From an uncultured Methanosarcinales archaeon (GTDB taxonomy: Archaea; Nanobdellota; Nanobdellia; Woesearchaeales; SKGA01): a stretch of 39,761 nt of DNA. The stretch is from contig CAZSZY010000005.1 in assembly GCA_964611285.1 (NCBI GenBank), forward strand, positions 1 to 39,761, given 5' to 3'. The position numbers were made by a program, and so were the translations under genes. Under the pieces are notes generated by a model. The model saw only the letters and a list, made by a program, of their open reading frames with translations. It did no database searches and was not told the origin of the DNA. This document shows positions 2,219-21,665 of this stretch, one piece after another. Each line of letters starts with the position of its first letter. The first letter of the stretch is position 1.

Positions 2219-2262
2219 TAACAGAAATCTTTTTATCTGTGGGCTTATTTGGAGAAGCTAAT

Positions 2263-3876
2263 ATGTTCATAGCAACTTCTTTATCTCATTATAAGCGCAT
2301 CCAAGTAAGAAAGAAGATTATTGCGCAAGCCGAACATAAAGAAGTTAGTGTTATGTATGGGTTAGAAAAGTTTGGAAAGCGACCAGATGTTCTCACGTAT
2401 GAAAATGATGTGCTAGAACTTGCTAAAAAAAAGGCAACTTCTTTTCATTGTTCTGAAGAATCATGGGAAAATCCTTTAGCAATTACTACGGGTTCTTCGC
2501 GTAAAGACTTGGATGCTCTTCGTATTGGATGGGATTTGATTTTGGATATTGATTGTCCTAATTGGAAACTTTCTCGAATAATTACTCATTTATTCATCAA
2601 AGCACTGCAAGATCATGGTATAGTTGCAGTTACTGCAAAGTTTTCAGGTAACAAAGGATTTCATATTGCAGTTCCTTTCGAATCATTTCCCTCACAAATT
2701 CCTTTTCAAGGAGAAATGAAATTAACAAAAGATTTATTTCCTGAAGGTCCACGAAAAATAGCGCTCTATTTACTTTCTTACATTACAAAAAATTATGTTC
2801 GTGTTTTTGATAAAGAACAAAAAGTTATTTTTGAAAATAAACACGAGTTTTTGTTTAGTGATTTTGATTCTATTTTGGAAAAAAACAAAAAGAATCTTGT
2901 TATTCGACAGTGTAGTGATTGTGAAAAATTATTTGAACAAAATACTCGCATAAAAACTTCTGTATTGTATCAGTGTGAGCAATGCGGCGCAGTTTCTAAA
3001 CCAAAAGGATCTCCAGAAATTATTCGTTGCGAAAAATGTTCTTATCCAGTGTCGCCACAACAAAATTCTCGTGCAAATGCTTGTCCTCATTGCGGTTCAA
3101 TAAAAAAACCTCGTCCAGAATTTAATTTGCCAGCAATAGTGGAAGTAGATACAGTGCTTATTGCGTCACGACATTTGTATCGTATGCCTTATTCTTTACA
3201 CGAAAAGTCGGAACTCGCTTCTGTACCTGTTCGATTGGATGATGTTCTTTCCTTTGAAAAGCAATTTGCAGCGCCAGAAAATATTTCTTTTGATGTTTCT
3301 TTTTTAGATAGGTTACAAGCAGTTCCTGGCGAGGGTGGACAATTATTAGTTCGTGCATTTGATGACACTTATGTTCCTGAAGAAGAAGAGCGGGCTAAGG
3401 CAAAGGTTATTGATGTACCTGCTGATGCTATTCCTGAAGACTTTTTCCCTCCTTGTATTAGAAATATTTTGAGTGGTTTAGAAGACGGTAAAAAAAGGGG
3501 ATTGTTTATTTTGGTTAATTTCCTTCGTGTATCTGGTTGGGGTGCTGAACAGATTAAAGAATTAGTGTATGCATGGAACGAGAAAAATCCAGAACCACTT
3601 AAAGAACAATATTTATTAGGTCAACTTAATCAAATAAAGAAGGGTCGAGCACCCATGCCACCTCCTAATTGTTCTAACAAAGACTATTATATTTCTTTAT
3701 TAGTATGTAAGCCAGATGACTTTTGTCCAAAAATTAGAAATCCAGCTATGTATGCTCGTAGAAGAGCAGAGTTAGGAAAGAAGACAATAAAGAAGAAGTC
3801 CAAGAAAGAATCTACTAAAAAAGTAGCAAAATCTTCAAAATCAACTGGAAGAACAGTACAAAAAGACAAAAAATGA
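2263..3876 (+). CDS. Archaeo-eukaryotic DNA primase, PriS catalytic domain fused to a PriL C-terminal (Fe-S) like domain
   Basis: AEP motifs LILDIDCP (DxD), FSGNKGFHIAV, VDTVLIASRHLYRMPYSLH. Two CxxC...CxxC zinc ribbons are inserted between them. The C-terminal FFPPCIRNIL...FLRVSGW...C-x12-C-x5-C resembles the PriL/p58C Fe-S domain. Start moved from the track GTG at 2239 to ATG 2263, which has GGAG 9 nt upstream. Confidence 0.8.
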   Translation: MFIATSLSHYKRIQVRKKIIAQAEHKEVSVMYGLEKFGKRPDVLTYENDVLELAKKKATSFHCSEESWENPLAITTGSSRKDLDALRIGWDLILDIDCPNWKLSRIITHLFIKALQDHGIVAVTAKFSGNKGFHIAVPFESFPSQIPFQGEMKLTKDLFPEGPRKIALYLLSYITKNYVRVFDKEQKVIFENKHEFLFSDFDSILEKNKKNLVIRQCSDCEKLFEQNTRIKTSVLYQCEQCGAVSKPKGSPEIIRCEKCSYPVSPQQNSRANACPHCGSIKKPRPEFNLPAIVEVDTVLIASRHLYRMPYSLHEKSELASVPVRLDDVLSFEKQFAAPENISFDVSFLDRLQAVPGEGGQLLVRAFDDTYVPEEEERAKAKVIDVPADAIPEDFFPPCIRNILSGLEDGKKRGLFILVNFLRVSGWGAEQIKELVYAWNEKNPEPLKEQYLLGQLNQIKKGRAPMPPPNCSNKDYYISLLVCKPDDFCPKIRNPAMYARRRAELGKKTIKKKSKKESTKKVAKSSKSTGRTVQKDKK

Positions 3877-19585: not shown

Positions 19586-20086
19586 TTAAAGACGGAATTC
19601 TTTCATAATTCCGTATAAATATTCTTTATTGTTTATATTTATTAATTCTAGCCGTTTTTCGGCTCTTAATTCATTTAAATAGCGATAAAAGGTTGCTTTT
19701 GAACAATAATTATGTTTATCTACGATAATTTCTTTGAGCTGTTTTGCAGTAACACGATTTTTGTTGGCAACACCAATGATCTTTTGTTTGATAATATGTT
19801 TCTTGTTTTTAGTTACTGTCGCAATAGCTTCCTGTTCTAAAATATCTATATTTGTTGTTTGCTTTTGTTTTGGGCTCTCTAAGACAATATAATCTGGTTC
19901 TGGTTCTGCAAGTATTGCTTCTTGTATAGGCAAATCTAATGCTTCTTCAGACATAATTTCTTCACTCAGTACTTCATGTTCGAGCTCTAGAAGAGTGTTT
20001 TTCAGACGTTCTACGCGTTCTACAAGCTTATGAAGCTCTTTTCCATCAGGACGCTTAATTCCTTTACGTAGAAACAAATCTTTCAT
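19586..20086 (-). CDS. Hypothetical protein: N-terminal coiled coil, acidic linker, C-terminal (w)HTH-like DNA-binding region
   Basis: 166-aa ORF. The C-terminal VTAKQLKEIIVDKHNYCSKATFYRYLNELRAEKRLELI looks like a helix-turn-helix. A TATA-like ttttaaataag lies about 25 nt upstream, suggesting a leaderless transcript. No family recognised. Confidence 0.55.
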   Translation of the reverse strand: MKDLFLRKGIKRPDGKELHKLVERVERLKNTLLELEHEVLSEEIMSEEALDLPIQEAILAEPEPDYIVLESPKQKQTTNIDILEQEAIATVTKNKKHIIKQKIIGVANKNRVTAKQLKEIIVDKHNYCSKATFYRYLNELRAEKRLELININNKEYLYGIMKEFRL

Positions 20087-20127
20087 GAATAAAGAGAAAT
20101 TCTTCAGCTTATTTAAAATTTTCCTGC

Positions 20128-20311
20128 AGTCTCAATATTGTCTCAGTGTCTCAGAGACTGCCTCAAGACTGTTCTGAGACTATTTTTGAGACTAAGAGTG
20201 TATTTGTGAGACTATGAAATCTTCTTTTCCATAGGAAACAAGGGGGTGTTCACAAGTCTCAGTTAATTTATTTGAGACTAGACTTTTTGAGACTGAGACT
20301 ATACTGAGACT
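20128..20311. repeat. Array of about 12 TGAGACT/AGTCTCA heptamer repeats (iteron/operator-like)
   Basis: Perfect TGAGACT starts at 20175, 20187, 20207, 20273, 20288, 20294 and 20305. Perfect AGTCTCA starts at 20128 and 20255. There are near copies at 20139-20159, including the GTCTC-A-GAGAC palindrome, and at 20164-20170. Confidence 0.9.
20227..20247 (+). promoter_or_regulatory. ORB-like (origin recognition box, Orc1/Cdc6-binding type) element
   Basis: TTCCATAGGAAACAAGGGGGT matches the archaeal ORB pattern TCCA-NN-GGAAAC-N3-GGGG(T). For comparison, Aeropyrum/Sulfolobus ORBs read about CTCCACAGGAAACGGAGGGGT as I recall them. Only one copy is present. Confidence 0.45.
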
Positions 20312-20449
20312 GATACTTCTTTTACGACCTTCACTGGTCAGTCCCACATAATATATATAAATATCCCAACCTCACCCATTTCTAAGGCAACCCCCTCATC
20401 AGAATCGTTGGTGGGTGAAATAAGAAGGGAAACCAAGGAGGTCTTAGCC

Positions 20450-20728
20450 ATGGAAAACATAAATACAGATAAAAATAGTCCCGAGCGAAAGTTTCGGGCA
20501 AGTCCAGTTACAGCAACAATCTGGACAAATGAAGCAAAAGGAAAAGATGGAGAAACAAACCTGTTTCGAACCATTACTTTAGACAGAACCTACAAAGACA
20601 AAGAAGGTTCTTGGAAAAAAACGAATTCTTTTCGTGTAAACGACTTGCCAAAAGCAGTTTTGGTACTCAATAAAGCGTTTGAATATGTCAGCATTAAAGA
20701 AGAAGGCGACATTATAGGAGAAGACTAA
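20450..20728 (+). CDS. Small PC4/YdbC-like putative ssDNA-binding protein
   Basis: 92 aa from ATG 20450, with AAGGAGG 7 nt upstream. FRASPVTATIWTNE...LFRTITLDRTYKDKEGSWKKTNSFRVNDLPKAVLVLNKAFEYV resembles the PC4 beta-sheet-plus-helix pattern (...IDIREYW.D..GE.KPGRKGISL..EQW..L). Assignment is by eye only. Confidence 0.45.
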   Translation: MENINTDKNSPERKFRASPVTATIWTNEAKGKDGETNLFRTITLDRTYKDKEGSWKKTNSFRVNDLPKAVLVLNKAFEYVSIKEEGDIIGED

Positions 20729-20729
20729 A

Positions 20730-21665
20730 ATGAACGGTCCTAAAGTTGAAGATTTACCTGGTGTTGGTGCCGCAACAGTTGAAAAACTAGAAGCGGGAGG
20801 ATTTGGAAACCTCATGTCTATAGCTGTTGCAACACCTGGACAGCTCGCAAATGCAAGTGGCGTAACTGAAGTCGCTGGAAGAAAAATGATTCAAGCAGCA
20901 CGAAGTATGATGGATATGGGTTTTCAATCAGGCGAGGATTTACTTGCAAAACGAGCAAAAGTAATTAAGATTTCTTGTGGGGCAAAAGGATTTGATGATA
21001 TGCTTGATGGTGGCTTTGAAACAGGAGCTATCAGCGAATGTTTTGGCCAATATGGGAGTTCCAAAACACAAATAGCGCATGCACTTTGTGTAAGCTGTCA
21101 AGTAAACGAACCAGATGCTATTGCAGTGTACATTGATACAGAAAACACTTTTCGACCAGAAAGAATTATGCAGATGGCAAAAGGTTTTGGTCTTGAACCT
21201 GAGCAAGTTCTCAAAAATATTCGTGTAGCAAGAGCTTTCAACTCTGATCATCAAATGCTTCTTGCAGAAAAGGTTGATGATTTAGTTCAAGAAGGTCAAA
21301 AAGTTCGTGTTATTGTTGTAGACTCACTAACTGCACACTTTAGAGCAGAATTTGTAGGTCGAGGAACTTTAGCAGAACGACAACAAAAGTTAAACAAGCA
21401 CATGCACGTATTGGCAAAACTAGCTGATATTCACAACGCTTGTGTTTTTGTAACTAATCAAGTAATGTCTAAACCAGACGCGTTTTTTGGCGATCCAACT
21501 GAAGCAATTGGTGGTCACATTGTTGGACACAACAGCACATTCCGTATTTATCTTCGTAAAGGAAAAAAAGGAACTCGCGTTGCAAAACTTGTTGATGCAC
21601 CAAATTTGGCTGATGCAGAATGTATTTATGAAGTAACTGAAGATGGTCTAAAAGACGCATCTTAA
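20730..21665 (+). CDS. radA: DNA repair and recombination protein RadA
   Basis: N-terminal HhH (LPGVGAATVEKLEAGGF), an ATPase core with Walker B VRVIVVDSLTAHFRAEF, and NQVMSKPDAFFGDPTEAIGGHIVGH. Walker A is atypical: GQYGSSKTQ. Confidence 0.92.
   Translation: MNGPKVEDLPGVGAATVEKLEAGGFGNLMSIAVATPGQLANASGVTEVAGRKMIQAARSMMDMGFQSGEDLLAKRAKVIKISCGAKGFDDMLDGGFETGAISECFGQYGSSKTQIAHALCVSCQVNEPDAIAVYIDTENTFRPERIMQMAKGFGLEPEQVLKNIRVARAFNSDHQMLLAEKVDDLVQEGQKVRVIVVDSLTAHFRAEFVGRGTLAERQQKLNKHMHVLAKLADIHNACVFVTNQVMSKPDAFFGDPTEAIGGHIVGHNSTFRIYLRKGKKGTRVAKLVDAPNLADAECIYEVTEDGLKDAS

Follow-up and report, generated by a model that had tools for sequence, protein, structure and literature searches.

A dense array of TGAGACT heptamers, built around a single origin recognition box (ORB), occupies the 363-bp intergenic region 20087-20449 of a 39,761-bp archaeal contig (CAZSZY010000005.1; this whole stretch is called the window below). 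The region separates a gene coding for a 166-aa coiled-coil/winged-helix protein from a divergently transcribed radA operon. The array, the ORB and their relative geometry are conserved together with the gene of the 166-aa protein, and the repeat changes or disappears when the recognition helix of the protein changes. The explanation in which we place about half of our confidence is that the region is a composite protein-binding platform, in which the heptamers would be bound by the 166-aa protein and the ORB by Orc1/Cdc6, and the resulting complex would mark the replication origin of the lineage or control Orc1 activity there. The elements of this platform are the following:

19586..20086, minus strand: open reading frame (ORF) of the 166-aa coiled-coil and winged-helix protein, with an MKDLF N-terminus and the recognition helix YCSKATFYRY; putative heptamer binder.
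20128..20159, mixed strands: promoter-proximal heptamer group, with a perfect copy at 20128 (-), copies with one mismatch each at 20139 (-) and 20147 (-) and a copy at 20153 (+); it contains the palindrome GTCTCAGAGAC.
20175..20213, plus strand: left direct-repeat group, TGAGACT at 20175, 20187 and 20207.
20227..20247, plus strand: ORB, TTCCATAGGAAACAAGGGGGT, a 21-bp element central in the array; predicted Orc1/Cdc6 site.
20255..20311: right heptamer group, AGTCTCA at 20255 (-), then TGAGACT at 20273, 20288, 20294 and 20305 (+).

The exact heptamer is found 13 times on the two strands of the window, nine copies being inside the 184 bp from 20128 to 20311 and four in the other 39.6 kb. The enrichment count proposed by the initial annotation, run here on the window, thus concentrates the motif in the array, and the recount gives the same seven TGAGACT (plus strand, starts at 20175, 20187, 20207, 20273, 20288, 20294 and 20305) and two AGTCTCA copies (20128 and 20255) that had been reported within about 185 bp. 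Copies with one mismatch are present at 20139 (-), 20147 (-), 20153 (+), 20311 (+) and 20340 (-), and the inverted one-mismatch pair described earlier corresponds to the palindrome GTCTCAGAGAC at 20148-20158, where two such heptamers are combined. Dinucleotide shuffles predict 5.2 copies per window and 0.024 per 184 bp, in agreement with the statement that far less than one is expected in such a stretch, and the Poisson probability of at least nine copies is 7e-21. The GAGAC core is present in 12 copies in the intergenic region, a density 42-fold that of the remaining window. Beyond the region, 31 copies were observed vs 29.8 expected from a maximal-order Markov model of the window, which is neither an enrichment nor a depletion, so the motif is special to the array region alone. 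On these figures, a restriction-site avoidance or a genome-wide motif (GAGAC is the core of the BsmAI site) was ruled out. In the whole window, the one-mismatch variants of TGAGACT are in deficit (76 vs 121 ± 11 in dinucleotide shuffles), and exact 5- to 7-mers outside the array match the maximal-order Markov expectation; the deficit probably comes from coding constraints and not from avoidance. The consensus derived from 157 sites of 16 loci is T(92%)-GAGAC-T(69%)/A(24%) with a T-rich 5' flank. The extended context that had been attributed to the heptamer is partly right.

The central element, previously called ORB-like, is a perfect ORB encircled by the array, and with up to five mismatches tolerated it still has no second copy in the window. 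Its 12-mer core with up to two mismatches is found 32 times in the window vs 35 expected, i.e. at chance level. Published ORB and mini-ORB sequences share with it the TTCC...GAA core (PMC1904270). A scan of GTDB genomes (one per species) with the exact 20-mer pattern TTCCAYAGGAAAYAAGGGGG yielded 96 loci vs roughly 4 by chance, mostly in archaea of several phyla. In 13 of these loci the identical pattern lies at most 400 bp from orc1/cdc6, often 5-10 bp ahead of the start codon, and most of the 13 belong to DPANN archaea. The ORB of the window is thus the predicted site of the single Orc1/Cdc6 of these archaea.

The conservation of the region was analyzed in a comparative set of about 26 loci found by the ORB scan or by protein similarity. 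In the alignment of eight loci whose HTH (helix-turn-helix) proteins are 39-79% identical, a comparison already suggested by the initial annotation, the heptamers and the ORB form invariant blocks and the spacers have diverged; the three heptamer blocks of the left group are invariant and AGTCTCA 20128-20134 is unchanged. The GAGAC/GTCTC cores are found at conserved offsets from the ORB start, namely -51, -39 and -19 in the left group and +29 (inverted), +47, +62, +68 and +79 in the right group, the latter offsets being the same in L004, L005, L007 and L008. In related loci, the spacings between copies of same orientation cluster, in a descriptive grouping made with no formal test, at 6, 11-12, 21-22, 32-33 and 43-44 bp. 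Being close to multiples of 11 bp, these spacings place the heptamers on one face of the helix. Five related loci (L044, L052, L087, L123 and L125) contain two ORBs in tandem.

The association between the gene and the array was then evaluated over the 96 ORB loci. By tblastn and a family hidden Markov model, a homologue of the HTH protein was located directly beside the ORB in 12 of them. Within ±200 bp of the ORB, 11 of these 12 loci contain 5-13 GAGAC cores and the last one (L087) contains two, vs at most three in the 84 others. In four of the 12 (L044, L052, L087 and L105), the unit formed by the HTH gene, the ORB and the heptamers has a neighbour other than radA (DUF192, metallophosphoesterase, others), which indicates that the conserved unit is the gene with its array.

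A second group of loci, L107-L130, was found by protein similarity and is hence unbiased toward ORBs. Their recognition helices and upstream regions are as follows:

CSKATFYRY helix (L107, L119-L125, L128, L129): 3-17 GAGAC upstream.
CSKSSFYRL helix (L108): 21 TCCCA cores (ATTCCCA/AGTCCCA), with a run at 11-bp period; no ORB.
CSKATFYNY helix (L110, L127, L130): array absent.
CSKASFYRY helix (L112): no upstream array; ORB-like element inside the gene.

The repeat is thus kept with the helix and is changed or lost when the helix changes; among the computational results, this covariation speaks most strongly for a reading of the heptamers by the protein. Nine of the CSKATFYRY loci have sufficient upstream sequence, and in seven of them, i.e. 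all but L119 and L122, the array encloses an ORB or ORB-like element. In L108 (about 2600-3000), the upstream intergenic region measures 840 bp; the 21 TCCCA cores are spread over 400 bp of it, and nearest to the gene are a few in inverted orientation. In L119 (2100-2376), which has the radA context and an HTH protein starting with MGDLFDLF, an array expanded to 17 GTCTC/GAGAC copies surrounds a degenerate TCTTTCCTTTATTC at the ORB position, indicating that the ORB can be lost while the array stays. Taken together, the co-occurrence of gene and array, the arrays of the protein-found relatives and the covariation between helix and repeat give good support to the heptamers as binding sites of the adjacent 166-aa protein, so that the operator for the neighbouring HTH protein envisaged by the initial annotation is, at the level of sequence comparison, well supported.

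The C-terminal HTH that had been read in the 166-aa product is a winged helix in the AlphaFold2 model computed from a 12-sequence alignment (pLDDT above 90 for residues 100-155). It is preceded by an N-terminal helix (residues 14-49), a disordered acidic linker and a second long helix. Foldseek comparison with the PDB gave generic winged-helix regulators only, at E values of 4e-3 or higher (Fur, ArsR/NolR, PadR, SSV1 F-93), the winged-helix domain of ORC2 being at rank 39, and a profile of the HTH family run against the PDB returned only spurious bL19m matches. No Pfam, NCBIfam or PHROG family was above threshold for this protein and no Rep match was detected. Only 12 close relatives were found among 5.8 billion sequences; the named ones come from metagenome-assembled genomes (MAGs) of Candidatus Woesearchaeota and Nanobdellota, and the family is confined to DPANN-type metagenomic archaea. 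The family profile retrieves 504 clusters at E≤1e-3, nearly all with the recognition helix [YL]CSKA[TS]FYRY. The MKDLF residues 1-5 are invariant in the close subfamily and the next 60 residues diverge; MKDLF may be a short interaction motif. Many genes of the family begin with ATGGGGG (MG[DE]...), which resembles the 3' end of the ORB, and in two loci (L112, 760-780; L124, 1302-1322) the ORB-like TTCCACTGGAAATGATGGGGT overlaps the 5' coding part of family members. The true start codons of such genes may be located within or just past an ORB.

In the mechanism that we propose, each winged helix would read one asymmetric heptamer and the N-terminal coiled coil would join protomers, leading to cooperative binding at sites spaced by multiples of about 11 bp on one DNA face. 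Orc1/Cdc6 would occupy the central ORB. Because the heptamer positions are fixed relative to the ORB, both proteins should most likely be engaged in one nucleoprotein complex. This complex would mark the origin or control Orc1 activity there, the origin then being away from orc1. A probable autoregulation of the HTH gene would be ensured by the promoter-proximal inverted copies and the palindrome, which stand beside the following element:

20108..20124, minus strand: BRE/TATA promoter that serves the HTH gene, GGAAAATTTTAAATAAG, some 22 nt ahead of its ATG.

This promoter was assigned by inference from the archaeal TATA/BRE consensus, and its distance to the ATG suggests that the mRNA is leaderless or nearly so. 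Its TTTATTTAAAATTTTC is invariant in the five closest loci and the flanks vary. AGTCTCA 20128-20134 starts 4 nt past the BRE/TATA block, a spacing kept in the same five loci. The motif and its putative regulator co-occur, the repeat covaries with the helix (L112 excepted) and the sites abut the own promoter of the regulator, as assigned from the consensus.

The main alternative is a purely transcriptional function, in which an autoregulated HTH factor would use a multi-site operator between divergent promoters with Orc1/Cdc6 as co-regulator and no replication would start. The HTH gene, and perhaps the 92-aa/radA operon with it, would for example be controlled in connection with the cell cycle or with damage. 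In favour of this function, two BRE/TATA promoters frame the array, whose leftmost copies adjoin that of the HTH gene with a constant spacing, some arrays have no good ORB (L119, L122 and L108), and the region has no unwinding element, second ORB, adjacent orc1 or skew change. In Sulfolobus, Orc1-2 is a DNA-damage transcription regulator, and other DPANN ORBs are placed 5-10 bp ahead of the orc1 start codon, a position fit for autorepression. Against this explanation, twelve phased sites over 190 bp far exceed the needs of a simple autoregulation. Between the array and the radA-operon promoter, the distance ranges between about 25 and about 150 bp, and four lineages have other genes in place of radA, so the control of radA is not the conserved function. 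Finally, a second ORB cluster would be expected at the real origin and none was found by exact match, even on a contig of 782 kb. We regard a solely transcriptional role as rather unlikely.

The chances that the complex of both proteins marks or controls the chromosomal replication origin of the lineage, away from orc1, appear roughly even from the sequence comparisons. In favour of an origin, the central box is the canonical Orc1 site, and it was the only exact ORB locus found in each genome having it. More generally, one exact ORB locus was found per genome, barring the two contig ends of one MAG, and this includes contigs of 782 kb (L044, HTH-type) and 599 kb; the exact-pattern scan of GTDB genomes revealed no genome in which an orc1-linked and an HTH-linked ORB are seen together. 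The fixed geometry of heptamers and ORB points in the same direction, as it suggests one complex with both proteins, and archaea already offer examples of accessory proteins at origins, UBP at ucm and WhiP at oriC3.

Several results weigh against the origin. No second ORB with up to five mismatches was detected in the 39.7 kb, so there is no inverted ORB pair, and no AT-rich unwinding tract is present within ±500 bp (maximum 78% AT per 60 bp, no stretch at 85% AT), whereas orc1-linked ORBs elsewhere in DPANN mostly have 100-190 bp at ≥85% AT. No orc1/cdc6 was detected by tblastn with Woesearchaeal Orc1 in the window or in loci L001-L010 and L107-L130 (±5 kb); an initiator gene beside the origin is common in archaea, though not universal. 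The initial annotation had pointed to a skew inflection as a sign of an origin; in the 40 kb of the window, the cumulative GC skew climbs through 20.2 kb without inflection and tracks the gene strand, and the third-codon-position (GC3) skew amounts to -0.056 left of the site and -0.012 right of it, again with no inflection. About 16 kb of ribosomal-protein/SecY genes, which are highly expressed, are transcribed toward the site, which makes them head-on with a leftward fork. The exact-match scan would overlook diverged ORBs beside orc1 in the same genomes, most of which are incomplete MAGs; in a search with a Woesearchaeal Orc1, none of the best 120 of 8000 matches could be placed on HTH-locus contigs. 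The arrays of L119, L122 and L108, in which no good ORB is found, suggest that the heptamer-protein pair has a function that is not strictly Orc1-dependent, and L112, with its KAS helix and no upstream array, is an exception to the association. The replication-origin iterons proposed at the start are thus plausible and unproven: they have in their favour a true central ORB, the sole exact one per genome, and against them the results for the second ORB, the AT tract, orc1 and the skew.

The other matches of the ORB scan are of several kinds. In seven DPANN loci (L024, L026, L042, L059, L066, L083 and L088), only 5-10 bp separate the end of a single ORB from the start codon of orc1/cdc6, which puts the G-string of the ORB at the Shine-Dalgarno position, and a tract of 100-190 bp with ≥85% AT is present 250-490 bp upstream. 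The AT-rich element TTTCTATATAGWAAATA is common to four ORB loci, including the trmB-linked L097; this conserved element of orc1- and trmB-linked ORBs is absent from the window. Some matches are in coding sequence: in L023, L045, L090 and L092 (Methanococcoides), the pattern is inside an RtcA-like 331-aa ORF reading FFPQEIRGG, and in L019 and L077 (bacterial MAGs) it is in a 454-aa bacterial ORF on the opposite strand. Since the pattern is there inside conserved protein-coding sequence, these matches are probably coding coincidences and not origin elements.

In about 18 Pace- and Woesearchaeota genomes, the ORB is inside a 196-245 aa ORF whose product has an MDPIKEAF coiled coil joined by a low-complexity linker to a C-terminal HTH (L013 6097-6687, L015 6998-7675, L021, L022, L029, L031, L032, L035, L049, L051, L056, L063, L071, L072, L073, L085, L094 and L103). 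In this family the ORB is translated in two frames, S[TI]GNKGV or [VL]PQEIRG, which indicates a conservation at the DNA level and not of the peptide. Short tandem repeats adjoin the ORB in L013 and L015, and orc1 is 2-5 kb distant in L071, L072 and L073. No homology between the HTH family of the window and the MDPIKEAF family was detectable by hhalign (probability 0.9%). A wider proposal can be put forward only tentatively, with a confidence short of even: in a clade of Woesearchaeales/Nanobdellota, the origin would not be at orc1 and would be specified by a single Orc1 box together with phased arrays for a previously unrecognised coiled-coil/winged-helix origin-binding family (YCSKATFYRY, at least 500 clusters), the Pace- and Woesearchaeota having a second, unrelated coiled-coil/HTH family with the ORB in its own coding sequence. 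Under this proposal, small lineage-specific HTH proteins encoded at ORBs would act more generally in DPANN, as co-initiators or regulators of origins, and rotating the genomes of such lineages to orc1 would misplace their origin.

The architecture of the array could also be that of a centromere-like or chromosome-organising site near the origin, an archaeal counterpart of parC/ParR or parS/ParB, in which a small dimeric protein would coat phased repeats upstream of its own gene and assemble into a complex for segregation or organisation. The short repeats make up two groups with about 11-bp phasing that flank a core and adjoin the promoter of the protein itself, which is small and combines a coiled coil with a DNA-binding domain; there is one cluster per 40 kb with no dispersed regulon sites, and the cluster is associated with an ORB, which is an origin marker. 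We nevertheless judge this function improbable, since a ParA/SegA/ParM-type NTPase gene is adjacent in none of the about 26 loci, the DNA-binding domain is a winged helix and not the ribbon-helix-helix typical of ParR-type binders, and the only tie of the family to SMC/ScpAB is their presence elsewhere in the window. On one side the 166-aa gene adjoins L14e, and the opposite side is taken by 92-aa/RadA, DUF192, metallophosphoesterase or others.

The genomic setting was determined by Pfam analysis. To the left are Hef, a fused primase-like ORF, a ribosomal-protein operon, SecY, L34e, L14e and then the 166-aa gene (minus strand); to the right of the intergenic region are the 92-aa ORF, RadA, Pelota, an FmrO methyltransferase, TrmB, TRAM, S2, a RadB-like ATPase, GyrA and ScpB. 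The primase-like ORF (545 aa, 2239-3876, plus strand) has weak Pfam matches to both the PriS and PriL primase subunits, which suggests a fused primase. The core synteny, with the ribosomal-protein/SecY/L34e/L14e block on one side and radA/pelota on the other, is kept in the contigs of five relatives (5/5). The window is core chromosome of a Woesearchaeota/Nanobdellota (DPANN) archaeon and not a mobile element.

This setting bears on the integrated or relic plasmid-like replicon that had been listed among the possible functions, i.e. a plasmid or viral replicon with a Rep-like HTH initiator, heptamer iterons and a captured host ORB. The array follows an iteron-plasmid-like logic, with direct repeats and, close to where the adjacent winged-helix gene has its promoter, an inverted repeat. 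For oriC3/WhiP, a capture of the origin from extrachromosomal elements has been proposed (cited in PMC12141716). Such a replicon is nonetheless highly improbable: the core synteny does not vary among loci with HTH proteins of 39-79% identity, the locus shows neither an integrase nor a tRNA target nor an anomalous composition (GC 0.39 vs 0.31-0.39 across the window), no family member is present in IMG/VR, PLSDB or INPHARED, and the protein has one winged helix with no similarity to Rep families (WH1-WH2, Rep_3 and similar). A mobile element was rejected on the synteny and on the absence of viral and plasmid relatives, and the earlier suggestion of a plasmid-like replicon is not supported for the same reasons.

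The right-hand third of the interval (20330-20449) is separate from the array and contains a promoter and a leader, followed by the recombination operon:

20330..20364, plus strand: promoter of the 92-aa/radA operon, a conserved TTCACTGGTCA motif and then the BRE/TATA CACATAATATATATAAATAT.
20390..20449, plus strand: structured 5' leader of the 92-aa/radA operon, with an outer helix (20393-20396 with 20426-20429) and an inner hairpin (20398-20403 with 20407-20412).
20450..21665, plus strand: downstream operon, 92-aa protein (20450-20728) and then RadA (20730-21665).

The promoter block CACTGG[AT]CA...TAT[AT]TAAA is conserved in 12 loci. Among radA-type loci, a spacer of variable length (about 25 to about 150 bp) separates this promoter from the array, whereas the HTH promoter keeps a constant distance to the array, which leaves the radA-operon promoter outside the array unit. 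In 12 of 12 radA-type loci, TTCACTGG[AT]CA (20330-20340, plus strand; TTCACTGGWCA) is present about 8 nt upstream of the BRE/TATA; its position is fixed to the promoter and not to the array, and its reverse complement TGWCCAGTGAA loosely resembles a mini-ORB. This motif is probably the site of a separate regulator. The conserved GUGAAAUAAGAAGGGAAACCAAGGAGG, which includes the Shine-Dalgarno sequence, follows the leader helices. RNAalifold analysis of the leader in 12 loci revealed compensatory changes in seven of the ten pairs; pairing was found in 86.7% of the cells vs 40-52% with slid partners, and the covariation score was 0.61 vs at most 0.23. No Rfam match was obtained at gathering thresholds, the leader included, and a permissive scan of 20050-20500 gave only chance-level matches with E values above 1. 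A reading of the region as a non-coding RNA was rejected on the lack of an Rfam match (E above 1 in the permissive scan of 20050-20500). From its sequence covariation, the leader is a candidate cis-regulatory RNA of the recombination operon. The radA assignment of the initial annotation is confirmed by the Pfam Rad51 match (8e-86). The 92-aa protein, which it had called PC4-like, belongs to a conserved DPANN family of 75 clusters devoid of a Pfam domain; its AlphaFold2 model (pLDDT 84) has four beta strands and a 26-residue C-terminal helix, and its best nucleic-acid-binding structural neighbour is Pur-alpha, with a probability of only 0.57. The predicted fold is compatible with a nucleic-acid binder of PC4/Pur-alpha/Whirly type, so that the topology agrees with the earlier label and no significant structural or sequence match does.

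To our knowledge, DPANN replication initiation has been the subject of no experimental study, and we found no literature linking ORBs to DPANN or Woesearchaeota. In a 2026 preprint on 208 complete Nanobdellota genomes, the origin was assumed to be at orc1 and the genomes were rotated to orc1 (bioRxiv 10.64898/2026.05.13.725050). The idea of an ORB combined with accessory sites is already known; here it involves an uncharacterised, widespread protein family and a conserved architecture that is new. The present locus supplies both a DNA element, i.e. a single canonical ORB fixed within a conserved array for a second protein, and a candidate partner protein from a large unannotated family. If the locus is an origin, this protein would be the third archaeal accessory or alternative origin-binding factor after WhiP and UBP, and the origin would be relocated from orc1. 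If the origin reading fails, the locus would still be, on sequence grounds, a clear example of a regulatory platform that Orc1/Cdc6 and a transcription factor have in common.

The platform can be compared with four known systems. Like the archaeal Orc1/Cdc6-dependent oriC (Sulfolobus oriC1, Pyrococcus oriC, Aeropyrum oriC1), it has a perfect ORB with the TTCC...GGAA dyad and the G-string, the same ORB sequence stands beside orc1/cdc6 in many archaea, and the locus is intergenic between divergent genes. Unlike these origins, it has one ORB instead of inverted ORBs flanking an AT-rich unwinding element, orc1 is not nearby, and the ORB is ringed by about 12 predicted sites for a second protein. 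Factors other than Orc1 bind non-ORB motifs in archaeal origins, namely UBP at ucm and WhiP at oriC3 (PMC12141716; PMC3607249). As in these Sulfolobus systems, a second sequence-specific protein is predicted to bind beside the ORB, and as for WhiP its gene adjoins the putative origin (PMC3607249; PMC12141716). UBP is an abundant nucleoid protein that binds by beta-hairpins to a single 11-bp site per origin and to hundreds of sites genome-wide (PMC12141716), whereas the window has about 12 clustered sites with no enrichment elsewhere and a protein family of DPANN type only. Iteron plasmid replicons (RepA/RepE/pi, 17-22-bp iterons) also have helically phased direct repeats and an inverted repeat near the promoter of a winged-helix gene, with a likely coupling of autoregulation and origin binding. 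They differ from the window by its 7-bp repeat core, its single winged helix with a coiled coil and no Rep similarity, its chromosomal and non-mobile location and the site of the host initiator in the middle of the array. Finally, the type II partition system parC/ParR shares with it two helically phased blocks of short repeats around a central element, upstream of the gene of the binder; there, the window differs in having no partner NTPase gene, a winged helix in place of a ribbon-helix-helix, and an ORB in the central position where parC has the promoter.

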